A DNA stretch of 33,080 nucleotides. Source: a virus. Lineage: Duplodnaviria > Heunggongvirae > Uroviricota > Caudoviricetes. Shown piece by piece: positions 3,927 through 33,080 of the stretch; the stretch's first letter is position 1, and every line of letters begins with the position of its first letter. The stretch lies in IMG/VR virus record IMGVR_UViG_2896601577_000002; one strand, written 5' to 3'. Both the position numbers and the translations under genes were made by a program. The notes beneath the pieces are model-generated. The model saw only the letters and a list, made by a program, of their open reading frames with translations. It did not search any database and was not told the DNA's origin.

Positions 3927-4463
3927 TCACTCTCCTTTGATGCGAATGTCAGCGACGCGTAATGCGTGTTCTAGGTCAATCAGGTAAAGCCAACTGCCAT
4001 TTTCTTTAGGTATCATGACTTGTCGCTCATATGCATTTATCGGGTGTCCATATCGAAGGTCGTAGCGAGTCGGTAATTGAACTTCCCGCGCTTCCAGTTC
4101 AGCAATACGCTTGCACCCATCAGAGATAACTCCCTCGTAATACTCGCGCTGCTCGTTGAGTTTTGATTTTGCTGCTTCAAGCTCAACGCGCAGCTTCCCA
4201 ACCGTAAGCGCAATATCCTCGTTCTCCTGGTCGCGGCGTTTGATGTATTGCTGGTTTCTTTCCCGTTCATCCAGTAGTGCCAGCACGGTTTCTGGTCCGG
4301 TCAGAAATTTGAAGGCATTGAGCGCATCAATATCCACACCGTAATCTTTAAGTTCCTGTTCACTTAACAAATCATCATCAACTGGCAACATTAACAGGCG
4401 TTCCATTGCTGGAATTGCACGTTCCGCCACCTCACGCAGTGCCTGGTAATTAATTTCGCTCAC
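3927..4463 (-). CDS. Ea22-like prophage protein
   Basis: N-terminus MSEINYQALREVAE, paralogous to the next ORF; typical lambdoid early-left protein. Confidence 0.65.
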   Translation of the reverse strand: MSEINYQALREVAERAIPAMERLLMLPVDDDLLSEQELKDYGVDIDALNAFKFLTGPETVLALLDERERNQQYIKRRDQENEDIALTVGKLRVELEAAKSKLNEQREYYEGVISDGCKRIAELEAREVQLPTRYDLRYGHPINAYERQVMIPKENGSWLYLIDLEHALRVADIRIKGE

Positions 4464-5140
4464 TGATTGCCTCCTTTGCGAAGCTGGGCAGCAAAGTCAA
4501 CTAACCACTCAGTCATTTCAACCTTCCCTACCAGGTCTGAACTAGGGTGCATACAGCAATCACTCTGCGCCGCTTTGAAATCCTTACACTCATATTCTTG
4601 GGCCACCAGATTTTTTGCAGCTTCTATAGCAGCATCCACCCCCTGCGCCCGGACTTCAGCCAGGAAAGCATCAGTGGTTGGCGTTTCAGGTATCTGTCTC
4701 CTCATCCGTTCTATTGCATGATTGAACCCGAAGTCTTCCGCGAGAGATACGTCATCCATATTGTCATTGTCATCCTCAATATCCCGTGATTCTGGAATTG
4801 CAGACTTTATTCCCGCATTCTCCGCTGCCAGCGCCGCGCACTTGGCTTCAAGAGCGGCAACCACTTCCTGATGGTCTTTGTACTTAACGTATGAGCCGGA
4901 GATGTCATCACCTTCGGTGTTTAGCCATGCGTCATTGCAATTCACTGCGTAGGTTCTGATGCTGATGCTCTCCCGCCCCTGACAGACGCCAGGCCAGTCA
5001 ATAAAGTATCCGCAATGCCTACCCTCAGACGTGCGCGCAGGATAAATGCCGTTATGACCCGGCAAAATATATGCTACCCATTCATCTTGCGTTGCCTGTT
5101 CCGCCGCCTCGCGCAGTGCCTGATAGTCAATCTTGCTCAC
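4460..5140 (-). CDS. Ea22-like prophage protein (paralog)
   Basis: N-terminus MSKIDYQALREAAE; 4-bp overlap with the downstream paralog. Confidence 0.65.
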   Translation of the reverse strand: MSKIDYQALREAAEQATQDEWVAYILPGHNGIYPARTSEGRHCGYFIDWPGVCQGRESISIRTYAVNCNDAWLNTEGDDISGSYVKYKDHQEVVAALEAKCAALAAENAGIKSAIPESRDIEDDNDNMDDVSLAEDFGFNHAIERMRRQIPETPTTDAFLAEVRAQGVDAAIEAAKNLVAQEYECKDFKAAQSDCCMHPSSDLVGKVEMTEWLVDFAAQLRKGGNQ

Positions 5141-19103: not shown

Positions 19104-20153
19104 ATGCTTAATACTGTAAAAATATCCAGTTGTGAGTTAATCAACGCCGACTGCCTGGAATTTATCCGGTCGTTACCCGAAAATTCTGTTGACCTGATAG
19201 TCACGGACCCGCCGTACTTTAAAGTGAAGCCTGAGGGCTGGGATAACCAGTGGAAGGGCGACGATGATTACCTGAAGTGGCTGGAGCAGTGTCTGGCGCA
19301 GTTCTGGCGGGTGCTGAAACCTGCCGGAAGTCTTTACCTGTTCTGTGGTCATCGCCTGGCATCTGATATCGAAATCATGATGCGTGAACGCTTCAGTGTG
19401 CTGAACCATATTATCTGAGCGAAGCCGTCCGGACGCTGGAACGGATGCAACAAGGAAAGCCTGCGGGCGTATTTCCCCGCCACAGAGCGCATTCTGTTCG
19501 CGGAACATTATCAGGGGCCGTACCGCCCGAAAGATGATGGCTATGAGGCGAAGGGCAGGGTACTGAAACAGAATGTGATGGCCCCGCTGATTGCTTACTT
19601 TCGTGATGCGCGAGCTGCCCTGGGGATAACGGCAAAACAGATTGCAGATGCCACAGGAAAGAAAAACATGGTGTCGCACTGGTTCAGTGCCAGTCAGTGG
19701 CAGCTACCGAACGAAAGCGATTATCTGAAATTACAGTCGCTGTTTGCCCGGGTGGCAGAAGAGAAACATCAGCGGAGAGAACTGGAAAAGTCCCATTACC
19801 AACTGGTCAGCACATACAGTGAGCTGAGCCGGCAGTATATGGAACTGCTGAGTGAATATAAAAATTTGCGGAGGTATTTCGGTGTGACGGTGCAGGTGCC
19901 GTACACCGATGTGTGGACGTATAAACCGGTGCAGTACTATCCAGGGAAACATCCGTGCGAAAAACCGGCAGAAATGTTGCAGCAGATAATCAACGCGAGC
20001 AGTCGTCCGGGAGACCAGGTTGCAGATTTTTTTATGGGCTCAGGTTCAACGGTAAAAGCGGCACTGGCGCTCGGGCGTCGTGCGATTGGCGTTGAACTGG
20101 AGACCGGACGTTTTGAGCAGACAGTCAGGGAAGTTCAGGATTTAATCGTTTGA
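19104..20153 (+). pseudogene. DNA N6-adenine (DPPY-type) methyltransferase with in-frame TGA at 19416-19418
   Basis: Motif IV DPPY near the N-terminus, motif I FFMGSGST near the C-terminus; both halves in the same frame, separated by a single TGA. Confidence 0.75.
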
Positions 20154-20202: not shown

Positions 20203-20278
20203 GGCCCTTTAGCTCAGTGGTGAGAGCGAGCGACTCATAATCGCCAGGTCGCTGGTTCAAATCCAGCAAGGGCCACCA
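20203..20278 (+). tRNA. tRNA with CAT anticodon, most similar to tRNA-Ile2 (ileX/ileZ-like)
   Basis: Canonical cloverleaf; acceptor GGCCCTT/AAGGGCC; anticodon loop CTCATAA; T-loop TTCAAAT; encoded CCA. Confidence 0.8.
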
Positions 20279-20285
20279 TCACATA

Positions 20286-20358
20286 CCGCCATTAGCTCAT
20301 CAGGAAAGAGCGCCAGCCTTCGAAGCTGGTTGCGCGGAGTTCGGGTCCCGAAGGCGGT
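20286..20358 (+). tRNA. tRNA-Arg(TCG)-like, atypical (possible pseudo-tRNA)
   Basis: D-arm and anticodon arm are canonical (loop CTTCGAA) but the T-stem 3' strand is one nt short, position 58 is G, there is an acceptor mismatch and no encoded CCA. Confidence 0.45.
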
Positions 20359-20374
20359 TCATTATCTGTATCCT

Positions 20375-20451
20375 GCGTTGTTAGCTCAGCCGGACAGAGC
20401 AATTGCCTTCTAAGCAATCGGTCACTGGTTCGAATACAGTAGAACGCGCCA
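20375..20451 (+). tRNA. tRNA-Arg(TCT)
   Basis: Cloverleaf with anticodon loop CTTCTAA; T-loop TTCGAAT; CCA encoded; one mismatch each in acceptor and T stems. Confidence 0.7.
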
Positions 20452-20466
20452 CACTTATTTTCCCTG

Positions 20467-20490
20467 GCTCGCTTTTGCGGGCTTTTTTTT
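20467..20490 (+). terminator. intrinsic terminator after the tRNA cluster
   Basis: GCTCGC-TTTT-GCGGGC followed by T8. Confidence 0.55.
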
Positions 20491-20686
20491 AAATGTCTCA
20501 CAATTCAGGCGGTTGACTGTTGTCTGGTTTGCGGGGAGTTTGTTAAAAGAAACTGGCATGGTGAATCCCCCTGTGCGGAGGGGCAATCAGCGAGTAGGTA
20601 TATGGGATAATCGCAGATTCAGGTGCTGGTACTGAATTCACCGGGAGGCACCCGGCACCATGCAATGGCACATAGCGCCACTCTCC

Positions 20687-20722
20687 AGCCCCTCTCCGGA
20701 GGGGCTGTTTATATTGATTTTG
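20687..20722 (+). terminator. GC-rich palindromic hairpin with T-rich tail
   Basis: AGCCCCTC-TCCG-GAGGGGCT followed by GTTTATATTGATTTTG. Confidence 0.45.
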
Positions 20723-20741
20723 TCAGATGTGAGTAAACTCC

Positions 20742-21077
20742 TTATGGACTTTGTTGTTTTAGCCCATAAGGACATATTTGCAGAGTGCAACGGTTATTAA
20801 AGCATTCATTCAATACGTTATCTGTATTTGTAGGGCATTCCTGGCTGTTTTTGATTAAATTCCAGAATGTTTTATTGAATGGTACTACGTTGTAAATGGT
20901 TACAGGTAGCACTTTGTTATTGAGCATGATGCCTGTGTGAGTCAGTGTAAATATACTTTCAGGAGGTAAGAAAGCATCCGATTGATACCAGATTATTAAT
21001 TTTATTTTACTCCATATGACTGAAAAAGATATTCCGCATGATGGCTGGATAACTGTATCAATCACAATCCACTTCAT
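20742..21077 (-). CDS. hypothetical AT-rich moron protein (111 aa, Cys-rich C-terminus) at the position stx occupies in Stx phages
   Basis: Minus-strand ORF with AGGA upstream of the ATG at 21077; local GC content far below flanks. Confidence 0.4.
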
Positions 21078-22391
21078 TTGGTTTCCTTGTTTATGCATTG
21101 CTGGTGATGTTCTGAAAAGTATAAATGATATTTTTGAATGTAAACCATAGAGCAGAATTATTTTTCTGATGTTGTTTATTGTTTATTTAAATGCAGGGTG
21201 GTTTATATCTCGTCTTGTAGTTTATCCATGCATATCTGCTTGATGATGAGGTTTTTATTTAAGGTATGGTTTTGTGTTTTTTCTGTATTACATGTCAGGT
21301 ATTTTAAAGAATCATTTTTCAGATGGTGGAAAGAACCATGGCATTTAAACACTATGATGTTGTCAGGGCGGCGTCGCCGTCAGATCTTGCGGAAAAGCTG
21401 ACACATAAACTGAAAGAGGGCTGGCAGCCGTTTGGTAGTCCGGTGGCCATAACCCCTTATACTCTGATGCAGGCGATTGCAGCAGAAGGTGCAGTAATCA
21501 GCGCCACCAGCAACCCGGAGTATTACTTTGTTGTGGTTCTGGCAGGGCAGTCAAACGGCATGTCGTATGGTGAAGGCCTTCCGCTGCCGGGGACATATGA
21601 CCGTCCGGACCCGCGTATTAAGCAACTGGCGCGTCGCAGTACGGTGACACCGGGCGGTGCAGCATGCAAATATAACGACATCATTCCGGCGGACCATTGT
21701 CTGCATGATGTGCAGGACATGAGCCGTCTTAACCATCCGAAAGCGGACCTGTCAAAGGGGCAGTACGGAACCGTGGGGCAGGGGCTGCATATCGCCAAAA
21801 AACTGCTGCCGTTTATACCGGCGAATGCGGGCATTCTGCTGGTTCCGTGCTGTCGTGGTGGTTCAGCGTTCACCACCGGAGCTGATGGCACATACAGTGA
21901 CGCGAGTGGTGCCTCGGAGAATTCAACCCGCTGGGGTGTGGACAAGCCGCTGTATAAGGACCTTATCGGTCGAACAAAAGCGGCACTGGAGAAGAACCCG
22001 AAAAATGTGCTGTTTGCCGTGGTGTGGATGCAGGGGGAATTTGATTTTGGCGGTACGCCGGCAAATCATGCCGCACAGTTTGGTGCGCTGGTTGATAAAT
22101 TCCGTGCAGACCTGGCGGATATGGCAGGCCAGTGCGTCGGTGGCTCTGCTGGCGGTGTTCCCTGGATATGCGGGGACACGACGTATTTCTGGAAGCAGAA
22201 GAACGAATCCACGTACCAGACGGTGTACGGCAGCTATAAAAATAAAACGGAAAAGAATATCCATTTCGTACCGTTCATGACCGATGAGAACGGGGTGAAT
22301 GTGCCGACGAACAAACCGGAAGAAGACCCGGACATTCTGAACCGCCCCGGGAATCCTGGAGACTAAACTTCCTGAGAAAGAGGTAAACAGG

Positions 22392-22718
22392 ATGACTAAA
22401 AATACTCGTTTTTCCCCCGAAGTCCGTCAACGGGCAGTCCGTATGGTTCTGGAAAGTCAGGGCGAATATGACTCACAATGGGCGACAATTTGTTCCATTG
22501 CTCCAAAGATTGGCTGTACGCCGGAGACTCTGCGTGTCTGGGTTCGCCAGCATGAGCGGGATACCGGGGGCGGTGATGGAGGGCTCACCACCGCTGAACG
22601 TCAGCGTCTGAAAGAGCTGGAGCGTGAAAATCGTGAACTGCGCCGCAGTAACGATATCCTTCGCCAGGCTTCCGCTTATTTTGCGAAGGCGGAGTTCGAC
22701 CGCCTCTGGAAAAAGTGA
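22392..22718 (+). CDS. IS629 OrfA
   Basis: 108-aa product [19 protein letters not shown]... Confidence 0.9.
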
Positions 22719-23605
22719 TGCCACTGCTGGATAAGCTGCGTAAGCTGTACGGGGTCGGACCGGTATGCAGTGAACTGCATATTGCCCCGTCAACGTATTA
22801 CCACTGTCAGCAACAGCGACATCATCCTGATAAACGCAGTGCCCGTGCGCAGCGCGATGACTGGCTGAAGAAAGAGATACTGCGCGTATACGATGGGAAT
22901 CATCAGGTATACGGTGTGCGTAAAGTCTGGCGTCAGTTGTTACGGGAAGGTATCAGAGTGGCCAGATGCACTGTGGCACGTCTCATGGCGGTTATGGGAC
23001 TTGCCGGTGTTCTCCGGGGTAAAAAGGTCCGTACGACCATCAGCCGGAAAGCCGTTGCCGCAGGCGACCGCGTAAACCGTCAGTTCGTGGCAGAACGACC
23101 TGACCAGCTGTGGGTAGCTGATTTTACTTACGTCAGCACATGGCAGGGCTTCGTCTATGTGGCGTTCATCATTGATGTGTTTGCCGGATACATTGTGGGG
23201 TGGCGGGTCTCATCGTCCATGGAGACGACATTCGTGCTGGATGCACTGGAGCAGGCGTTATGGGCCCGTCGACCGTCCGGCACGGTCCATCACAGTGATA
23301 AAGGTTCTCAGTATGTATCGCTGGCCTACACACAGCGGCTTAAGGAAGCCGGATTACTGGCATCAACAGGAAGTACAGGCGACTCGTATGACAACGCGAT
23401 GGCGGAGAGCATCAATGGTCTTTACAAAGCGGAGGTAATACACCGTAAGAGCTGGAAAAACCGTGCAGAAGTGGAACTGGCCACACTCACGTGGGTGGAC
23501 TGGTATAACAATCGACGATTGCTGGAAAGGCTGGGCCATACTCCTCCGGCAGAAGCAGAAAAAGCTTATTATGCTTCCATCGGAAACGATGATCTGGCAG
23601 CCTGA
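22715..23605 (+). CDS. IS629 OrfB transposase
   Basis: 296-aa IS3-family DDE transposase. Confidence 0.9.
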
Positions 23606-24655
23606 GTTCACAGATAAAACACTCTCCAGGAAACCCGGGGCGGTTCAATTCCGGGTATCGGTTATTACGGTTCGAAATGGCGTGACAGCTCAGCCACCTG
23701 GACGTCACAGGACAGGGCGAGCCATTTCAGTTCATGGGCTCGCCGTGGGATTATTTCCGACCGTCTGGCAACGGCGATTCTGAGCTGCGCGGGTAAGTCT
23801 TCTGCGTTTGTTAATGGTACTGCCGGGGTGGTTGTTCCAGACAGGCCGGTTACCACCTCAGAGTCTGTAATTTTTTACGATGCCAAAAAAGCTACAGACA
23901 ATCAGCTGAAACCTTATGGCTGGGACGGTATGTATGGCAGACGCACACTGGTTGATGACAGCGGCAATAAAGCTCTGCGAATTGAGAAAAATAACAGCGC
24001 GAAATCCTGGTCAATGTACTGTGATATTGCTGCAGACAAGGCAAAACTTTTACTGGAAAAAGGCGGGGAAATTGCTGTCCGGTTTAAAATCCCCGAAAAC
24101 GTCAATCTTGAGACAACCAGAAACAAGTATGCCTTTGGTTTGTACTGGCGAATAGCGGAATGGCCGGGTGAGGGTGGTGAAGGCCATCTGAGTTCTTTCT
24201 TTGTCCAGACAGATAAAGCCAGTATTAATGTTGCATACCATCATACAGTTAATCAACAAAAAGAACTTGGCACGTTTGGCGCATTCGACCATGACTGGCA
24301 TACGCTTGCATTTAAATTTAAGGGCAGTAACAGCATTAATGTTACTCCGGTGCTTGATGGTGTGGATGGACAGGCGTTTGACCTGGTGAAATGGGCCAAT
24401 ACTGCTAATGGACTCAACAGGTTTGTCATTACGGATATTACAGGTAGTGCAGAAACCTACCCTGTACTTATTGATACGGTGGAAGTTAAAGCAAACAAAG
24501 CTGGAGCAGCCGCATAATTGCTAAAAAAAGCCGCCAGCGGCAGGAATGGAAGCTGGCGGAGGTAATCCCAATGGAGAATGTAAAGAAAAGATGCTTTCGT
24601 ACATTGGTTTTTAAATGAAAACAATTCTCATTGTCAACCATAACGGTAAGAAATT

Positions 24656-24838
24656 ATGACATTTATTCATCAGGTGATGCTGTACTTCTGTACGGCGGTC
24701 TGTGTGCTGTATCTTCTTTCGGGTGGGTACAGGGCTGTGCGCGATTTCTGGTGCAGGCAGATTGATAAAAGGGCCGCTGAGAAAATCAGCGCCAGTCAGT
24801 CAGCCGGAAGCAAACCCGAAGAACCCGTTACTCCTTAA
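24656..24838 (+). CDS. hypothetical small membrane protein (60 aa)
   Basis: ORF with hydrophobic N-terminus; weak SD. Confidence 0.3.
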   Translation: MTFIHQVMLYFCTAVCVLYLLSGGYRAVRDFWCRQIDKRAAEKISASQSAGSKPEEPVTP

Positions 24839-24863
24839 CAACCCCTTTCAGCGAGAAAATCCC

Positions 24864-25109
24864 ATGTCAGAAATCACATCCCTGGTCACTGCAGAGGCAG
24901 TGAAGGAAGTCCTGCGCTCTGAAGAAGTCCGGAGCGCACTGAAACAGAAACTTCGCCAGAATCTTGAGTCGCGTCTTGATGCAGAAGTGGATGCCATTCT
25001 GGATGAGCTGCTGGGCGTAGCAGCGGTTCCTGAGCCGGAAGGTATCGCGGGTGACGGGAGTGCTTCAGATGGCGGTGAACCTACACCTGACAGCGACATG
25101 ATGATGTAA
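24864..25109 (+). CDS. hypothetical acidic protein (81 aa) upstream of the holin
   Basis: [25 protein letters not shown]...; more protein-like than the antisense ORF. Confidence 0.45.
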
Positions 25110-25185
25110 GCATGCGCAAGGGACCATCGGTGTGTGCCGGTGGTCTTTATATTGTTGTGAGCTTCCGGATTGCGGGAGACGGGGT

Positions 25186-25401
25186 ATGTACCAGATGGAA
25201 AAAATCACAACAGGTGTGTCATACACCACGTCAGCGGTGGGAACGGGCTACTGGTTCCTGCAGTTGCTGGACAGGGTTTCCCCGTCTCAGTGGGCGGCAA
25301 TAGGCGTGCTGGGGAGTCTGTTGTTTGGGCTGCTGACATATCTGACTAACCTGTATTTCAAAATCAGAGAGGACCGTCGTAAGGCGGCGCGGGGAGAGTA
25401 A
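25186..25401 (+). CDS. S: class II holin (pinholin, S21-like), dual-start motif MYQM
   Basis: 71-aa product ...[68 protein letters not shown]. Confidence 0.85.
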
Positions 25402-25405
25402 AGCG

Positions 25406-25750
25406 ATGAAGAAAAAATACGAACTGGTTGTTAAAGGGATAAATAATTACCCGAATAAGATTACTGTTACTGTGGCACTGGAAATTGGTGGGTATCCGTC
25501 ACTGTTGTTGCCAGATGTGGCGATTAGTCTTGACCGTACTGAAGATGCCACGCTGGAGTTTTACGAAGCTGAGGCGAAAAAGCAGGCGAAGCAGTTTTTC
25601 ATGGATGTTGCTGCCGGGTTATGTGAAGGGGATGGTCCGTTGCCGGAAAAGCGCCCCGTAATTTTAGAGGCGCAGGATGTGTTGATAACCTACAGAGGAA
25701 AACTACCGGGAATAATTACGGGTTCTCTGAAGACTCCACCGCTGGCCTGA
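25406..25750 (+). CDS. hypothetical protein (114 aa) between holin and endolysin
   Basis: ATG 4 nt after the S stop, with GGGGAGAG SD inside the 3' end of S; E. coli-like codon usage. Confidence 0.55.
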   Translation: MKKKYELVVKGINNYPNKITVTVALEIGGYPSLLLPDVAISLDRTEDATLEFYEAEAKKQAKQFFMDVAAGLCEGDGPLPEKRPVILEAQDVLITYRGKLPGIITGSLKTPPLA

Positions 25751-25800
25751 AGACTTAACATATCCAGGGATTTGAAATCGATAAACCCTGATAAATATCC

Positions 25801-26334
25801 ATGAACACCAAAATCAAATACGGCCTGTCGGCTGCCGTTCTGGCGCTGATTGCCGCAGGTGCGCCTGCGCCTGAAATCCTCGACCAGTTTCTGGATGAAA
25901 AGGAAGGTAACCACACCACGGCATACCGTGATGGCGCGGGTATCTGGACCATCTGCCGCGGTGCCATCCTGGTGGATAGTAAACCTGTCGTCCCGGGCAT
26001 GAAGTTGTCGAAGGAAAAATGCGACCAGGTCAACGCCATTGAGCGTTATAAGGCGCTGGCATGGGTGGAGCGCAATATTAAAGTGCCGCTGACCGAACCC
26101 CAGAAAGCGGGTATCGCGTCATTTTGTCCCTATAACATTGGCCCCGGTAAGTGTTTCCCGTCGACGTTTTACAGACGGATTAATGCTGGTGACCGCAGGG
26201 GAGCATGCGAAGCGATTCGCTGGTGGATTAAGGACGGTGGCAGAGACTGCCGTATCCGCTCAAATAATTGCTACGGTCAGGTATCCCGGCGAGACCAGGA
26301 AAGTGCGCTGGCGTGCTGGGACATCGACAGATAA
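25801..26334 (+). CDS. R: SAR endolysin (phage lysozyme R)
   Basis: N-terminal signal-anchor YGLSAAVLALIAAGA and lysozyme core; matches the Stx-phage R type. Confidence 0.9.
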   Translation: MNTKIKYGLSAAVLALIAAGAPAPEILDQFLDEKEGNHTTAYRDGAGIWTICRGAILVDSKPVVPGMKLSKEKCDQVNAIERYKALAWVERNIKVPLTEPQKAGIASFCPYNIGPGKCFPSTFYRRINAGDRRGACEAIRWWIKDGGRDCRIRSNNCYGQVSRRDQESALACWDIDR

Positions 26335-26428
26335 GCAGAATATTTTGCTGAAAAATAAGGCATGAGCACGCGGACGGATAACACGAAATCCTGCGAACTG
26401 GCGAAACGTAAGTGAATAAAAGTAAAAA

Positions 26429-26465
26429 CCCCGTTTGTTGGCACCAAGCGGGGTTTTGTGTTTCT
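26429..26465 (+). terminator. strong intrinsic terminator downstream of R
   Basis: 9-bp stem CCCCGTTTG/CAAGCGGGG, 7-nt loop, followed by TTTTGTGTTTC. Confidence 0.6.
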
Positions 26466-26490
26466 GACCTTGAGTAAGGCAAGGGAGAAC

Positions 26491-26673
26491 ATGGCGAAGT
26501 ATAAACGAATTCTGTTGAGGTTGACCATGAAAAACGGCCTTGAACTGAAAGCGCCTGTAACTGATGACATCAGCAGAGCACTGGCTTTTGCCATTAAGTG
26601 GGTGGCGGTCGGTGTTGCTGTGTCCCCGATGCTGTATGGGCTGGCAAAACTGGTCATTGCGTTGAAATCGTGA
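26491..26673 (+). CDS. hypothetical small protein (60 aa) with C-terminal hydrophobic helix
   Basis: ATG at 26491 with SD AGGGAGA. Confidence 0.4.
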
Positions 26674-26687
26674 AGGGAGGATTAAGC

Positions 26688-26819
26688 ATGTCAGACAAAC
26701 TCATAACGCTGGCGAAGATCCTCTGTGTAATTGTCGGCATTTCATTTTCACTAATGCTGGTTGCTCTTTTTCTTTCCATGGCCTGGATGATGTTGTCTTC
26801 GTCGGGGCTGCTGGGGTGA
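26688..26819 (+). CDS. hypothetical small membrane peptide (43 aa), translationally coupled to Rz
   Basis: Perfect SD AAGGGAGG 7 nt before the ATG; stop TGA overlaps the Rz GTG start (GTGA). Confidence 0.5.
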
Positions 26820-27289
26820 ACATAAACCGAATGCTTTCCGCGTTTACCGTTATTCTGCTGGTGGTCTGTGGTGCGCTGTGGCTGGCAACAGACCATTACC
26901 GTGATAACGCCATCACCTACAAAGCGCAGCGCGATAAAAAAGCCAGAGAGCTGGAGCTGGCAAACGCAACCATTACTGACATGCAGCAGCGCCAGCGTGA
27001 TGTTGCTGCGCTTGATGCCAGATACTCAAGGGAATTAGCCGATGCGAGAGCTGAAAATGAAACTCTGCGTGCTGATGTTGCCGCTGGTCGTAAGCGCCTG
27101 CGGATCAACGCCACCTGCTCCGGTACCGTGCGTGAAGCCACCGGCACCTCCGGAATGGATAATGCAACCGGCCCCCGACTGGCAGACACCGCTGAACGGG
27201 ATTATTTCACCCTCAGAGAGCGGTTGATGACAATGCAGAAGCAACTGGAAGGGGCGCAGGAATATATCCGCACTCAGTGTATTAACTAG
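26816..27289 (+). CDS. Rz: i-spanin Rz
   Basis: Matches lambda Rz ([30 protein letters not shown]...[22 protein letters not shown]). Confidence 0.85.
27042..27227 (+). CDS. Rz1: o-spanin Rz1 lipoprotein, embedded in Rz in the +1 frame
   Basis: [17 protein letters not shown] lipobox and Pro-rich region, as in lambda Rz1. Confidence 0.8.
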
Positions 27290-27312
27290 TATTTTTGTTA
27301 TCCGGAGAATGC

Positions 27313-27537
27313 ATGAAGAAATTACTGGTAACCGTAAAGCCTTTTCAGGGAACAATTCCGTTCCGTATTTTGCAGCGTGGTCGTGTTCTTGTTGAAGGTT
27401 CGTTCAGTGGTAAATGTACGCAATTACACTCCCGGACCTTTCAGGTGAATGCCACGAATGAAGAGCTAACCGTTGAGTGTACGATGAATGCCGCTAAATG
27501 CCGCATGGTATCCGCTGCATTACAGCCAGTGTGTTGA
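27313..27537 (+). CDS. hypothetical protein (74 aa) downstream of Rz
   Basis: ORF with SD GGAGA. Confidence 0.35.
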   Translation: MKKLLVTVKPFQGTIPFRILQRGRVLVEGSFSGKCTQLHSRTFQVNATNEELTVECTMNAAKCRMVSAALQPVC

Positions 27538-27906
27538 GCGACCTTATTAACCATGCGCGGTATTGTCGCCGTATCCCCGCATTAACAGAGACCGCAGCCC
27601 GACCGGGAGACTCCTCTGCGCGAGTGTGCGGGGATAATCAAAAACGATACACACCGGGGTTTACCGCGTTAACGGAGCGCGGCGTTGTCCCCTCATGGTC
27701 GCTGGTCCGGTGCGATGGTGGAAGAAACCGGACGATGTGTTACCTCGCAAGCTCTGTTATGTCATGTGTCTGATTTGTGATTTAAGTCGGATAATTGTCG
27801 TTGCCATTAAGCAGAGGATTGATGACCGACAGGGTGGCATTGTTAGAATAAGTGAACCGCCCCGGGAATCCTGGAGACTAAACTTCCTGAGAAAGAGGTA
27901 AACAGG

Positions 27907-28233
27907 ATGACTAAAAATACTCGTTTTTCCCCCGAAGTCCGTCAACGGGCAGTCCGTATGGTTCTGGAAAGTCAGGGCGAATATGACTCACAATGGGCGA
28001 CAATTTGTTCCATTGCTCCAAAGATTGGCTGTACGCCGGAGACTCTGCGTGTCTGGGTTCGCCAGCATGAGCGGGATACCGGGGGCGGTGATGGAGGGCT
28101 CACCACCGCTGAACGTCAGCGTCTGAAAGAGCTGGAGCGTGAAAATCGTGAACTGCGCCGCAGTAACGATATCCTTCGCCAGGCTTCCGCTTATTTTGCG
28201 AAGGCGGAGTTCGACCGCCTCTGGAAAAAGTGA
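27907..28233 (+). CDS. IS629 OrfA
   Basis: Identical product to copy 1. Confidence 0.9.
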
Positions 28234-29120
28234 TGCCACTGCTGGATAAGCTGCGTAAGCTGTACGGGGTCGGACCGGTATGCAGTGAACTGCATATTGC
28301 CCCGTCAACGTATTACCACTGTCAGCAACAGCGACATCATCCTGATAAACGCAGTGCCCGTGCGCAGCGCGATGACTGGCTGAAGAAAGAGATACTGCGC
28401 GTATACGATGGGAATCATCAGGTATACGGTGTGCGTAAAGTCTGGCGTCAGTTGTTACGGGAAGGTATCAGAGTGGCCAGATGCACTGTGGCACGTCTCA
28501 TGGCGGTTATGGGACTTGCCGGTGTTCTCCGGGGTAAAAAGGTCCGTACGACCATCAGCCGGAAAGCCGTTGCCGCAGGCGACCGCGTAAACCGTCAGTT
28601 CGTGGCAGAACGACCTGACCAGCTGTGGGTGGCTGATTTTACTTACGTCAGCACATGGCAGGGCTTCGTCTATGTGGCGTTCATCATTGATGTGTTTGCC
28701 GGATACATCGTGGGGTGGCGGGTCTCATCGTCCATGGAAACGACATTCGTGCTGGATGCTCTGGAGCAGGCGTTATGGGCCCGTCGACCGTCCGGCACGG
28801 TCCATCACAGTGATAAAGGTTCTCAGTATGTATCGCTGGCCTACACACAGCGGCTTAAGGAAGCCGGATTACTGGCATCAACAGGAAGTACAGGCGACTC
28901 GTATGACAACGCGATGGCGGAGAGCATCAATGGTCTTTACAAAGCGGAGGTAATACACCGTAAGAGCTGGAAAAACCGTGCAGAAGTGGAACTGGCCACA
29001 CTCACGTGGGTGGACTGGTATAACAATCGACGATTGCTGGAAAGGCTGGGCCATACTCCTCCGGCAGAAGCAGAAAAAGCTTATTATGCTTCCATCGGAA
29101 ACGATGATCTGGCAGCCTGA
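28230..29120 (+). CDS. IS629 OrfB transposase
   Basis: Identical product to copy 1. Confidence 0.9.
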
Positions 29121-29188
29121 GTTCACAGATAAAACACTCTCCAGGAAACCCGGGGCGGTTCAAAGACTTATTCTTATCTGTGCCGGGA

Positions 29189-29521
29189 ATGAAAATGAAA
29201 AGAAACCTTCCGTTAATTATTTTGTTGTCTTCTCTGGTTATGGGCTGTACGCAACATAAAACAGATATGCCCCGACAGTTGGTTAAGGCATTACCACAAT
29301 ATCCGGCCTATGCAGCGGCAAATTATATAAAGGGACGGGTTGATGTGAGGTTTGATATTGGTGCTGATGGTACTGTCACCCGAATTGAGTTTATTCGTTC
29401 AGAGCCGCACCATCTGTTTGATGAGCAGGTTGTAAAGGCGATGGCAAAATGGCGATTTGAGAAGGACAGGCCGTGTAAAGGCGTGAAGAAAACGTTTATC
29501 TTTAGTCCTTCCGCACCCTGA
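29189..29521 (+). CDS. putative lipoprotein with TonB C-terminal-like domain
   Basis: Signal peptide with lipobox (LVMGC); segment YPAYAAANYIKGRVDVRFDIGADGTVTRIEFIRSEPHHLFDEQVVKAMAKWRF resembles the TonB_C fold. Confidence 0.55.
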   Translation: MKMKRNLPLIILLSSLVMGCTQHKTDMPRQLVKALPQYPAYAAANYIKGRVDVRFDIGADGTVTRIEFIRSEPHHLFDEQVVKAMAKWRFEKDRPCKGVKKTFIFSPSAP

Positions 29522-29652
29522 TTATTTCATCAGAAATTAATTATCACTCTGTTGTTATTCTGTACATCCCGGCAGGGTAAGTCTTGTTCCGTCGGATATG
29601 AAGATGAAATATTGTTGGAGGACAGTGGGTACCTGCTCCTGTAACCGAACGT

Positions 29653-29853
29653 TCATTTCTCGTTATTTGTCATGCTGGCCGGGCGCAGATGCGTTGCATC
29701 TGTTGCCAGCCTTCTCCTGCAGGCTTCAATAACCCACGCTGAAAAGTTTCCTGAACCTTTCAGATCAAGAGCGATGTTAATTTGTTCAATCATCTGGTTT
29801 GGAAATCGGATGTTGCGGGTTGTTGTTCTGCGGGTTCTGTTCTTTGATGACAT
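29653..29853 (-). CDS. hypothetical small basic protein (66 aa)
   Basis: ORF; possible relation to small prophage DUF3950-type proteins is recollection only. Confidence 0.4.
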   Translation of the reverse strand: MSSKNRTRRTTTRNIRFPNQMIEQINIALDLKGSGNFSAWVIEACRRRLATDATHLRPASMTNNEK

Positions 29854-29899
29854 AATGTTTCCCCATATTCAGTGTTGCTGATTTGTATTATCTGAAGTT

Positions 29900-31420
29900 G
29901 CTTTTACGTTAATTTGATGCAGATCAATCAATACGATAGTAAGGCAGTATGACTTTCCGTGAGACAGATGCTGGCCAACGTGGGATATTTAACGCGGGTT
30001 AACATCGTTGTCAGAGCCGCATGGGTGAGCTGTTGCTACACCCCGGTATTTCCACCACGGAGGCCAGCATGAACAACAATAACACATTGTACGTCGGGTT
30101 AGATGTTCACAAAGAATCGATTACTGTCGCTTATGCTATCAATTCAGAACCTGTTGAACTGATGGGTAAAATTGGCACATCACCTACTGATATTCAGAAT
30201 CTTTGTAAACGTCTCAGGTCAAAGTCATCGCAGGTCAGTATCGTTTATGAAGCGGGGCCCTGTGGTTATGGACTTTATCGTCGGCTGGTGAAATCCGGTT
30301 TTGACTGCATGGTCTGCGCCCCCTCACTTATCCCGAAAAAACCGGGGGAGCGGGTTAAAACCGATCGCCGTGATGCCATCAGACTTGTGCGTTCACTGCG
30401 TGCAGGAGATCTTTCTGCTGTCTACGTACCCGGCATTGAAGATGAGGCATTCCGGGATTTGGCCCGGGCATGGGCATCTGCCCGCGATGATTTACGGCAT
30501 GCAAGGCAACGTCTGAAATCGTTTCTTCTGGTTCATGGGGTCCATTATGTCGGGCGAGCAGATTGGGGCCCTGCACACCGACGCTGGCTCAGCAAATACT
30601 CATTCGAAAGTCCCTGGCGACAATTAGCTTTTGACGAACACCGTCGTACAATAGAAGACCGGCAGGCACAATGTGAACGGCTGGAATCCGCCCTGAAGGA
30701 GGCCGTTACCGAATGGAGGCTGTATCCGGTAGTAGAGGCGCTGCAAGCCATGCGAGGGATTCAGTTTATTACTGCGGTTGGATTAATTTCTGAACTGGGT
30801 GATCTGACCCGTTTTGAACATCCACGACAACTGATGTCATGGTTTGGTATCACGCCATCAGAATATTCATCGGGTGGAAGCAGACATCAGGGCAGCATTA
30901 CCAAAGCCGGAAACAGCTATGCCAGAAAGCTATTGGTCGAGGCAGCGTGGAGTTACCGTCATCCGGCACGCATCAGTCCGGCAATACAAAAAAGGCAGGA
31001 AAATTTACCCCGCCCCGTCATTGACAGAGCATGGGATGCTCAACTCAGGCTTTGTAAGAGGTATCGAAAACTTCAGGCCAAAGGAAAGAATGTCAATATT
31101 ACAATTGTTGCTGTTGCACGTGAGCTGGCGGGTTTTATCTGGGATATGGGCCGAATAGCAATGTCTGTCGCACAACAACCACAATGTCACAAATAAAAAT
31201 GAGAATAACCAGTTCCCTGAAGGCGACGTAGCCCGGTACAAGAGTAACCCACGTTAGCGCTTGGCGACGGCGGAACAAAGCTGATTCGCGACGTAAGAAA
31301 GTGGCAGGCTCATATGACGGACCTCTGTAATGCGGTATCCAACCCGCGAATATCAGCGTGATTCACCGTCGGATTTACTGCTACGTCGCCCTCAGGGAAT
31401 TAAACCTAAAAAGAAAATCG
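29900..31420 (+). mobile_element. IS110-family insertion sequence; boundaries cannot be set from sequence alone
   Basis: DEDD-type transposase gene; this family lacks conventional terminal IRs and TSDs. Confidence 0.3.
30069..31196 (+). CDS. IS110-family (DEDD) transposase
   Basis: N-terminal YVGLDVHKESITVAY and KTDRRDA motifs; C-terminal Transposase_20-like region; SD GGAGG. Confidence 0.85.
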   Translation: MNNNNTLYVGLDVHKESITVAYAINSEPVELMGKIGTSPTDIQNLCKRLRSKSSQVSIVYEAGPCGYGLYRRLVKSGFDCMVCAPSLIPKKPGERVKTDRRDAIRLVRSLRAGDLSAVYVPGIEDEAFRDLARAWASARDDLRHARQRLKSFLLVHGVHYVGRADWGPAHRRWLSKYSFESPWRQLAFDEHRRTIEDRQAQCERLESALKEAVTEWRLYPVVEALQAMRGIQFITAVGLISELGDLTRFEHPRQLMSWFGITPSEYSSGGSRHQGSITKAGNSYARKLLVEAAWSYRHPARISPAIQKRQENLPRPVIDRAWDAQLRLCKRYRKLQAKGKNVNITIVAVARELAGFIWDMGRIAMSVAQQPQCHK

Positions 31421-31439
31421 TCAAAATTAGAGATTCCGG

Positions 31440-33080
31440 TTTGACACGGAAAGTCATATCAGCGTCAACGGAGCACCGTATTGACGCTTATTTATTGGTG
31501 AGTGCTACGTTCCATGGCAGGAGTTCGTCAACACGGTTGGAAGGCCATTCCGGCAGTACGCTCAGGATATAGCGCAGATACGCTTCCGGATCGATACCGT
31601 TCAGTCGGCAGGTGCCGATCAGCCCGTACAGTAGCGCACCACGCTCTCCACCGTGATCGCTGCCGAAGAACATAAAGTTTTTCTTTCCGAGACAGACTGC
31701 ACGAAGCGCTCTTTCCGCGGCATTATTATCCGCCTCAGCCAGACCATCATCACTGAAGTTGCACAACGCAACCCAGTGCTTCCTGATATACCGGAACGCA
31801 TCTCTCAGACGGCATTTTTTCGATAACGTGTGTTCTTTCTCCTGCATCAGCTTATACAGGGAAGTCAGTAGCGGTTTACTCTGCATTTGCCTGACCGCCA
31901 GGCGTTCAGACACCGGCAACCCGCGTATTTCGTGCTCGATGGCGTACAGCTCACCGATTAGTTTCAGGGCTTCTTCCGCTGTCGCGCTTTTGGTACTGAT
32001 ATATACATCGTGGACTTTGCGCCGCGCATGAGCCCAGCATCCTGCTTCCGTCAACGCGCCGCCTTCTCGTTCGGCACTGAACAGCCGATCGTAACCATTA
32101 AACGCATCTGCCTGCAGGATACCCCGGAAGGGACTAAGGTGCTGCTCCGGATGTTTACCCTGATGGTCCGGTGAGTAGGCGAACCAGACCGCCGGAGGCT
32201 CTGGCGAACCGGCATTCCTGTCATCCCGGACATACGTCCAGATATATCCTGTTTTCGCCTTCTTCCTGCCCGGTGCCAGCACTTTTACTGGTGTGTCATC
32301 AGTGTGAACTTTGCGGCTGTTCATCACATAACGGTACAGAGCATCATTCAGCGGCGTCATTAACTGGCAGCACGCGTCAACCCAGTTGGAGAGTAATGCA
32401 CGGCTCAGTTCGACACCCTGACGGGCAAAAATTTCACTCTGACGATACAGTGGCAGGTGTTCGCAGTATTTTCCCGTTAACACGCGGGCAAGTAACCCCG
32501 GGCCCGCGATACCACGCTCTATCGGACGGGATGGTGCCGGTGCTTCAACGATGCAGTCACATTTTGTACAGGCTTTTTTTACCCGTTCTGTGCGGATCAC
32601 TTTCAGAGCGCTGCTCACCAGTTCCAGTTGTTCTGCGCTGACTTCCCCCAGATAATCCAGCTCACCGCCACACTCCGGGCAACAGCTTTCTTCTGGCTCC
32701 AGGCGATTTATTTCGCGGGGCAGATGCTCCGGTAACGGGCGACGATGACGAGACTGTCGCAACTGGCGGGGAACCTGCGGATCGTCTTCCCGCCCACTGT
32801 AACGATCACTGTCCTGTTCGCGTTGTTTCAGCAGGGCCTCAGCCTGTTCAACTTCACGACGCAGTTTTTCAGAACGGGTACCGAACAGCATCCGGCGCAG
32901 TTTTTCTATCTGAGCCCGCAGATGTTCTATTTCCCGTTCATCTTCTTCGATCTTTTCTTCGGCGCGGGCCAGTGCAGAGCGCAGGAAGGCCTCCGTCTCT
33001 TCAACCAGACTCAGTTGCTGGTCTTTCTGACGGAGCTGGCATTCCAGTTCTGCAATGCGAATGAGGTATTTTTGATTCAT
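31440..33080 (-). mobile_element. IS66-family element, partial (tnpC end; remainder beyond the right edge)
   Basis: TnpC-like gene followed by an IR-like palindromic sequence TAAGCGTCAATACGGTGCTCCGTTGACGC. Confidence 0.5.
31488..33080 (-). CDS. tnpC: IS66-family transposase TnpC
   Basis: 530-aa product with N-terminal coiled coil, Cys cluster CPECGG...CTKCDC and IS66 TnpC-like core; ATG sits exactly at the window edge. Confidence 0.85.
   Translation of the reverse strand: MNQKYLIRIAELECQLRQKDQQLSLVEETEAFLRSALARAEEKIEEDEREIEHLRAQIEKLRRMLFGTRSEKLRREVEQAEALLKQREQDSDRYSGREDDPQVPRQLRQSRHRRPLPEHLPREINRLEPEESCCPECGGELDYLGEVSAEQLELVSSALKVIRTERVKKACTKCDCIVEAPAPSRPIERGIAGPGLLARVLTGKYCEHLPLYRQSEIFARQGVELSRALLSNWVDACCQLMTPLNDALYRYVMNSRKVHTDDTPVKVLAPGRKKAKTGYIWTYVRDDRNAGSPEPPAVWFAYSPDHQGKHPEQHLSPFRGILQADAFNGYDRLFSAEREGGALTEAGCWAHARRKVHDVYISTKSATAEEALKLIGELYAIEHEIRGLPVSERLAVRQMQSKPLLTSLYKLMQEKEHTLSKKCRLRDAFRYIRKHWVALCNFSDDGLAEADNNAAERALRAVCLGKKNFMFFGSDHGGERGALLYGLIGTCRLNGIDPEAYLRYILSVLPEWPSNRVDELLPWNVALTNK

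Follow-up and report, generated by a model that had tools for sequence, protein, structure and literature searches.

Between the holin gene S and the endolysin gene R of a lambdoid prophage (IMG/VR record IMGVR_UViG_2896601577_000002, whose 33,080 nucleotides are referred to here as the window) lies an open reading frame (ORF) that can be read directly from the sequence, with 114 codons running from ATG to TGA and a product of 114 amino acids. We find that this ORF is almost certainly ydfR, which encodes a protein of the DUF1327 family. It is a known, annotated and very common component of this type of lysis cassette, which has been rediscovered here, and not a new element. The explanation of its role that we favour, tentatively and with less than even confidence, is that ydfR is dispensable cargo, expressed late, whose product acts on a host factor and is not an effector of lysis.

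The family assignment rests on several independent searches. The Pfam family PF07041 (DUF1327) matches residues 1–112 of the protein with 153.1 bits, against a gathering cut-off of 25 (E = 2.4e-45), and phrog_406 matches at E = 4e-64 as one of several PHROG families found, all of unknown function. RefSeq labels the same gene 'YdfR family protein'. A 100% identical protein is encoded at 16 IMG/VR loci, and pairwise ratios of nonsynonymous to synonymous substitution rates (dN/dS) among 39 unique homologous sequences are 0.25–0.36, indicating purifying selection. Together, the DUF1327 score, the dN/dS values and the identical IMG/VR copies show that the ORF is a genuine gene and did not arise by chance. 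Searches of PADLOC and NCBIfam returned no family at all for YdfR, and hence no membership of a known defence or toxin-antitoxin system.

Counting only genomes in which a 1301-base S-ydfR-R query is covered by at least 80%, a holin, YdfR and a lysozyme follow each other in at least 2540 of the 5426 complete genomes of E. coli; matches are present in 4400 of the 5426. The same query also matches 374 phage records, among them Shiga toxin (Stx) converting phages of the Stx1a, Stx2c and, in some cases, Stx2a types, and BP-4795. In the Qin prophage of K-12 the genes follow each other as essQ, ydfR four bases on, rrrQ and rzpQ. An exhaustive HMMER search of 1.84 billion representative proteins gave only 91 matches at E ≤ 0.001, and among the species representatives of GTDB matches were confined to Escherichia and Shigella, plus two metagenome-assembled genomes that look contaminated. 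It would have counted against the original prediction if the ORF were a conserved and annotated component of this cassette type with a known function; the conservation and the annotation are indeed there, the known function is not.

The arrangement at the start of the gene is as originally predicted, with a 114-amino-acid ORF four nucleotides past the S stop and a Shine-Dalgarno sequence within the end of S. The holin stop codon TAA (25399-25401) is followed by AGCG (25402-25405) and then by the ydfR ATG, and the GGAG core of the Shine-Dalgarno sequence GGGGAGAG is located 9 nucleotides 5′ of this ATG. A consensus scan of 23600-27900 detected neither a promoter-like site on the plus strand within S or ydfR nor a terminator between ydfR and R. 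Since ydfR has no promoter-like site of its own on that strand, only the late (Q-dependent) transcript can supply its message.

Comparison with cassettes of the canonical type shows ydfR to be an insertion. Phage records were searched with a chimeric query in which S of the window was joined directly to R, and the matches fell into two classes, one of about 1145 bases in two pieces (ydfR present) and one of 751 bases in a single piece (ydfR absent). The latter makes up about three quarters of the full-length matches sampled, shares about 90% identity with the window in S and R, and includes VT2-Sakai, P13374, PA2 and many Stx2a phages. Among stx phage types, the gene is found in Stx1a and Stx2c phages and is absent from Stx2a phages of the Sakai/933W type, as it is from phage 434. 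In VT2-Sakai, R starts four bases past the S stop, with an identical GGGGAGAG-TAA-4 nt-ATG arrangement, whereas in phage 434 R overlaps the S stop. The junctions read ...GGGGAGAGTAA GCTG ATG(R) in VT2-Sakai and ...GGGGAGAGTAA AGCG ATG(ydfR) in the window, and the first codons of R specify MSRKLRYG in the former and MNTKIKYG in the latter. The matching junctions indicate that ydfR takes the S-adjacent ribosome-binding slot otherwise used by R. Furthermore, because cassettes with S and R about 90% identical exist without ydfR, the gene is dispensable for lysis. Its GC content at third codon positions (GC3) is 0.48, against 0.66 for S and 0.62 for R. The notion of a canonical cassette in which S is followed directly by R holds for phage 434 and VT2-Sakai, and ydfR is an extra gene relative to it, although the S-ydfR-R order is itself very common.

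The protein consists of a folded N-terminal core and a C-terminal tail that is predicted to be disordered. AlphaFold2, supplied with an alignment of 39 sequences that included distant homologues, predicts strands at residues 5–14, 18–27 and 38–43 and a helix at residues 50–73, with a predicted local distance difference test (pLDDT) score of 78–95 over residues 1–70; the confident fold is limited to residues 1–73 (an alignment of the 16 close homologues alone gave a pLDDT of 42, which is unusable). Y5, Y53 and E54 are invariant in the 39 sequences, down to 25% identity, and the core aligns without internal gaps to standalone homologues of 72–76 amino acids. In the tail, pLDDT is below 50 for most of residues 80–114 (80–97, 101–103 and 111–114). 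The tail is conserved in the Escherichia clade and missing from K-12 YdfR and from the distant homologues. The original prediction of a protein without signal peptide or transmembrane helix is supported by a maximal 19-residue Kyte-Doolittle mean of 1.18, a grand average of hydropathy of −0.05 and an isoelectric point (pI) of 5.5: we found in the window YdfR no signal peptide, none of the membrane helices of which a holin or antiholin has at least one, and no match to a holin family.

Distant relatives of the core occur outside lysis cassettes. The weakest matches in the protein search are standalone proteins of 72–94 amino acids from Citrobacter, Yersinia and metagenomes, which align to residues 1–72 without gaps at 25–36% identity. 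In all eight look-ups they were found in lambda-like tail-tip clusters and not in lysis cassettes, at four sites: after the tape-measure gene, and between M and L, L and K, and I and J. That the core domain is found away from lysis genes makes it unlikely that its function is intrinsically about lysis. Three roles had been put forward for the ORF in the original prediction. Unrelated cargo riding on late transcription fits best, given the presence/absence polymorphism, the deviant GC3 and the distant homologues in tail clusters; an accessory enzyme finds no support, as there is no match to a catalytic family or fold; and a regulator of lysis, discussed below, is less likely.

What host factor such cargo might act on is suggested by the homologue in the Qin prophage of K-12 (P76160, b1555), the sole family member with experimental data (PMC13232886). 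In our literature search, DUF1327 and ydfR led to this one functional paper, other hits for ydfR being the unrelated name of a melanoma cell line or passing mentions. K-12 YdfR belongs to the same Pfam family, occupies the same position, likewise four bases past a class II holin, and is followed by a lysozyme 88% identical to R of the window. It differs in having 103 amino acids, of which residues 75–103 are unrelated to the window tail (EKRPVILEAQ...GSLKTPP), and in a ydfR stop that overlaps the rrrQ start (ATGA) where the window has a 50-nucleotide leader. A bacterial two-hybrid screen yielded residues 1–72 of K-12 YdfR three times. In the two-hybrid assay this fragment interacts with RNase E(1–597), the catalytic half of the enzyme; the full-length protein also interacts with it, and Strep-YdfR co-purifies RNase E(1–598)-FLAG together with DNase-resistant nucleic acid (PMC13232886, RNA Biology 2026). 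Overproduction of the protein was not toxic, and ydfR is essentially silent in growing K-12 (PMC13232886). Over residues 1–74, the region that corresponds to the RNase E-binding fragment, YdfR of the window and YdfR of K-12 align without gaps at 47% identity. The Keio deletion of ydfR was also among the primary hits of a screen for envelope leakiness with chlorophenol red-β-D-galactopyranoside (CPRG) (listed only in supplementary files 2 and 5 of PMC3879167). We give this phenotype little weight and regard it as plausibly a polar artefact of the kanamycin cassette, because the deletion lies directly upstream of the SAR (signal-arrest-release) lysozyme gene rrrQ.

The scenario that we favour starts from a gene found in lambdoid phages of Escherichia and Shigella between a pinholin of the phage-21 type and a SAR endolysin. 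The Shine-Dalgarno sequence in the last codons of S directs translation of ydfR, whose ATG comes four bases past the S stop. R is left with a separate conserved leader lacking a Shine-Dalgarno sequence or, in K-12, relies on a ydfR stop codon that overlaps the R start codon. The product would be a soluble, acidic, cytoplasmic protein, with the folded residues 1–73 as its probable functional core, which may bind a host factor. The likeliest candidates are RNase E, through its catalytic half, and RNA, singly or together. YdfR would thereby adjust RNA metabolism late in infection, with no action on the membrane or the cell wall. For the protein of the window, the RNase E/RNA mechanism, argued from its K-12 homologue, is a possibility that we hold to be doubtful, more so than the broader reading of ydfR as cargo.

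Several observations weigh against this scenario. Binding of RNase E and RNA is known for the K-12 homologue only, from overproduced, tagged protein; the authors themselves could not exclude a contaminating protein that retains RNA; and overproduction of K-12 YdfR shifted few transcripts, which speaks against a strong global effect on RNase E (PMC13232886). The C-terminal tail is conserved, yet no role is assigned to it. A link to lysis would be consistent with the invariant site beside the holin, and the prophage that carries the window copy is defective and full of insertion sequences.

A link to lysis could take the form of a soluble regulator of lysis timing, with YdfR binding, in the cytoplasm, either the basic tail that ends the pinholin or the short, basic N-terminus that the SAR endolysin exposes there, and delaying or promoting triggering in the manner of an antiholin or of the releasin of phage Mu (gp25). 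We consider this unlikely, although it is the best placed of the alternatives. In Escherichia the gene has no other setting than a class II holin on one side, with the invariant four-base coupling, and a SAR lysozyme on the other, and YdfR is acidic whereas the holin tail and the N-terminus of R (MNTKIK) are basic. Furthermore, SAR endolysins do have dedicated regulators facing the cytoplasm, Mu releasin being an example of an extra, non-canonical protein that acts on the cytoplasmic side of a SAR-endolysin lysis system (PMC9239132). However, releasin depends on an N-terminal membrane anchor and belongs to DUF2730 (PMC9239132), whereas YdfR has no hydrophobic segment that could serve as a tether and matches only DUF1327, not DUF2730; Mu also lacks a holin, and the window cassette has one. 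Nearly identical S and R work without YdfR in VT2-Sakai and phages of the 933W type, and the types of YdfR N-domain do not co-vary with the holin, since a holin 100% identical to that of the window is paired with YdfR proteins 58–100% identical to its own. The core domain in tail clusters has no lysis genes nearby, and overproduction in K-12 produced no growth or lysis phenotype (PMC13232886).

The four-base coupling and the region in front of R also bear on a second alternative, in which the insertion matters in cis. The holin stop and four bases precede the ydfR ATG in all 90 loci (of 91) in which the holin 3′ end is contained in the sequence, and this junction is kept even in the K-12 type, which is only 47% identical. 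The 3′ side is variable. Across loci, YdfR has 89, 103, 104, 110, 114, 129, 148, 176, 183, 206, 211, 268 or 329 amino acids, and the distance from ydfR to R is −83, −4, 42, 50, 53, 55, 125, 233, 319–343, 404 or 452 bases. In the window the spacer is 50 nucleotides (25751-25800), and this leader of R (ACATATCCAGGG...CCCTGATAAATATCC) lacks a Shine-Dalgarno sequence and is able to fold into a small hairpin, with an RNAfold energy of −8.0 kcal/mol for 25740-25815. Its ATAAATATC[C/T] element is kept in 18 of 20 distinct variants of the sequence upstream of R; in K-12, ATAAATATC is likewise present ahead of rrrQ, but there it is part of the ydfR coding sequence, which extends to a stop codon overlapping the rrrQ ATG.

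By its insertion, ydfR might thus deprive R of the strong, S-adjacent Shine-Dalgarno slot and so lower or re-time the ratio of endolysin to holin. In K-12, R would then depend on termination-reinitiation after ydfR, and the YdfR protein itself could be nearly neutral. Such an effect is in keeping with the use of one GGGGAGAG-TAA-4 nt-ATG arrangement for R in VT2-Sakai and for ydfR in the window, with the conserved R leader, which has a small hairpin and no purine-rich ribosome-binding site, and with the ATGA overlap in K-12. Against it, a dN/dS of about 0.3 and the conservation of the domain down to 25–30% identity in other genera point to selection on the protein, and the distant homologues are not located upstream of endolysins. 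We therefore regard a purely cis-acting role as improbable.

Two major types of N-domain exist (MKKKYELVV... and MTQNYELIV...), and the synonymous divergence (dS) between them is about 2.1 over codons 1–74 but 0.14 over codons 75–111, a contrast which shows that ydfR is a gene mosaic. Around the ydfR stop the direct repeat CTGAAGACT is present twice, and loss of the segment between its copies corresponds to the YdfR variants of 110 amino acids; a leader of the L078 type, 'GGTTCTCTGAAGACTTAACATATCC', is the deleted form. The long YdfR forms of 206, 268 and 329 amino acids (L010, L047, L085-L090) have C-terminal extensions of unknown function, phrog_1085 and phrog_34145. In one protein of 112 amino acids (P0153), an N-terminus resembling such an extension is joined to an EKRPIILEAQ...GSLKTPP tail, a combination which suggests that the C-terminal tail behaves as a shuffled module.

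The neighbourhood of the distant homologues raises a third alternative. In all eight look-ups, a convergent ORF of 74–182 amino acids on the opposite strand starts 0–42 bases past the DUF1327 gene, and where Escherichia cassettes have a long gap between ydfR and R, the 3′ end of ydfR is overlapped or closely followed by a reverse ORF of 87–110 amino acids, one of these being annotated in phage vB_EcoS-783R2. In the literature that we could search, we did not find this recurrent pairing of DUF1327 with a small convergent ORF at several late-operon sites described. DUF1327 could accordingly be the forward half of a two-gene mobile module, neutralising or silencing a reverse gene expressed in the lysogen when late transcription sets in, with the window holding a reduced version. 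Each reverse ORF falls in its own PHROG family, of unknown function, and the CTGAAGACT repeat flanks the variable segment. However, the reverse ORFs are unrelated to one another by BLASTP, so that one common protein antidote is unlikely; no promoter was found at the scan threshold before the reverse ORFs of L092, L095 and L101; Pfam gave only sub-threshold noise, and no reverse ORF matches a known defence or toxin family. Furthermore, most Escherichia copies, including those of K-12 and the window (a short form without a reverse gene), keep ydfR intact on its own. The two-gene reading is hence also improbable. Its most elaborate version is more doubtful still: DUF1327 would be an adaptor binding RNA and RNase E, encoded by the forward gene of a module with a variable opposite-strand ORF and inserted at no fewer than five late-operon sites of temperate Enterobacterales siphophages (S/R, after tape-measure, M/L, L/K and I/J), where, made late, it would silence or clear the antisense cargo transcript expressed in the lysogen or resolve sense-antisense RNA, the window being a reduced module whose reverse gene was lost by recombination between CTGAAGACT repeats.

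Within the window, an antisense ORF of 94 amino acids (25755-26039), four bases past the ydfR stop, was considered as a convergent partner and rejected: it lies within R, is interrupted by stops in 9 of 53 unique homologous sequences (all nine at no more than 97% identity) and has no similarity to the reverse ORFs. Several tail-cluster copies of DUF1327 share a 5′ leader, AAGCCGAAAGGNRGGAG.

Returning to ydfR as late-expressed cargo, the closest relatives of the window gene are ORF47 of BP-4795 and its equivalents in Stx1a, Stx2c and some Stx2a phages, which have 114 amino acids, 97% identity, the same S-ORF-R order and the same 50-nucleotide R leader; in BP-4795 the gene is annotated only as 'hypothetical protein'. 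These phages are intact and inducible, whereas the prophage that harbours the window copy is a remnant with neither stx nor structural genes. Late operons of lambdoid phages also carry morons (Juhala/Hendrix-type), bor and lom of lambda among them, which bring a promoter and a terminator with them and are expressed by the prophage. ydfR resembles them in being present or absent between collinear genomes, in its atypical base composition and in its location between essential late genes, and differs from them in having no promoter or terminator of its own, so that it is readable only from the late transcript. The small phage proteins T7 gp0.7, T4 Srd and phiKZ Dip bind RNase E and change RNA decay, and they are made in early or mid-infection. 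They illustrate the mode of action proposed for YdfR, to which they are not known to have any sequence or fold relationship and which is encoded in the late operon.

Table 1. Coordinates of ydfR, its parts, neighbouring features and related loci (window positions unless a locus is named)
Feature	Position	Strand	Basis or remark
ydfR, DUF1327/YdfR-family gene, 114 amino acids, short form	25406..25750	+	PF07041, phrog_406, RefSeq name
N-terminal core domain, residues 1–74, strand-strand-strand-helix, Y5 and FYE motif (Y53, E54)	25406..25627	+	AlphaFold2, alignment
C-terminal tail, residues 75–114 (...EKRPVILEAQDVLITYRGKLPGIITGSLKTPPLA)	25628..25747	+	predicted disordered; alignment
Shine-Dalgarno sequence GGGGAGAG within the holin S 3′ end	25391..25398	+	read directly from sequence
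Direct repeat CTGAAGACT, two copies around the ydfR stop codon	25727-25735, 25747-25755	+	
Spacer/leader of R, weak conserved hairpin TATCCAGGG...CCCTGATA at 25761-25793, ATAAATATCC before ATG	25751..25800	+	
Class II (phage-21 type) holin S, 71 amino acids	25186..25401	+	Pfam PF04971 'Bacteriophage P21 holin S', E = 8.6e-33
R, SAR-type lysozyme (endolysin), 177 amino acids	25801..26334	+	PF00959, E = 5e-24; phrog_7 'endolysin'
Rz i-spanin, with Rz1 o-spanin embedded at 27042-27227; end of lysis cassette	26816..27289	+	PF03245, E = 7e-50; PF06085, E = 1.5e-19
Q	17709-18209		
tRNA-Met, tRNA-Arg, tRNA-Arg	20203-20451		downstream of Q, as in Stx phages
IS629-like copies, identical 296-amino-acid OrfB	22392-23605 and 27907-29120		bracket the lysis region
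TonB C-terminal fragment	29180-29521		
IS110-family transposase	30021-31196		
IS66-family transposase	31488-33080	-	
Standalone DUF1327 loci	L092-L099, L103-L109		e.g. L092: gene 4001-4261, reverse ORF 4266-4553
Further loci of DUF1327 paired with a reverse ORF	L004 3311-3589; L005 3500-3766; L028 3464-3739; L085 3817-4131; L101 828-1100		

The features around ydfR are listed in Table 1. The holin S is also matched by phrog_9876 and phrog_20 ('holin'), is annotated by RefSeq as the same 216-nucleotide gene in locus L001 and has two possible start codons, Met1 and Met4 (MYQM), and the N-terminus of R is SAR-like (MNTKIKYGLSAAVLALIAAGA). The window is the late part of a lambdoid prophage whose layout resembles that of an Stx phage, with Q, transfer RNA genes, a NanS-p-like esterase gene and the lysis genes. 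We found no stx operon in the window; the approximately 870 bases before the esterase gene (20452-21322) hold only an unassigned ORF of 118 amino acids (20742-21098, minus strand). The first IS629-like copy splits the NanS-p/SASA esterase into 21323-22366 (DUF1737 and SASA) and 23828-24517 (DUF6645), and the second comes after Rz. No terminase, head or tail genes are present in the window, and the prophage ends after Rz (27300-33080). With no structural genes and many insertion sequences, the prophage is defective. Among complete E. coli genomes, the identity of its best match reaches only about 95–97%, and the host may accordingly be Shigella or an Escherichia other than E. coli.

Some further features of the region can be mentioned. 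A DNA methylase gene (PF01555) is split into an N-terminal part (19104-19418) and a C-terminal part (19575-20153) and is probably disrupted. A 13-base-pair terminator-like hairpin (25119-25148) lies between a DUF826 gene and the holin start, and in phage 434 a terminator is annotated at the equivalent place upstream of the holin (L102 1423-1459). A second, strong 13-base-pair terminator-like hairpin (26425-26457) lies directly 3′ of R. The interval between R and Rz contains small ORFs at 26458-26673 (phrog_1115) and at about 26688-26819 (phrog_4906, with a hydrophobic, membrane-like segment); related phages have ant in this interval, which looks like a second cargo slot in the lysis cassette (26425-26819).

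About half of the complete E. coli genomes hold ydfR inside a lysis cassette, and no function is assigned to the gene. Should YdfR regulate lysis, a soluble component would be added to the pinholin/SAR-endolysin paradigm. If YdfR instead modulates RNase E or RNA late in infection, this would represent an unrecognised route by which lambdoid phages influence RNA decay, and the yield of toxin and of phage particles could change, as stx is transcribed from the same late promoter in Stx phages.

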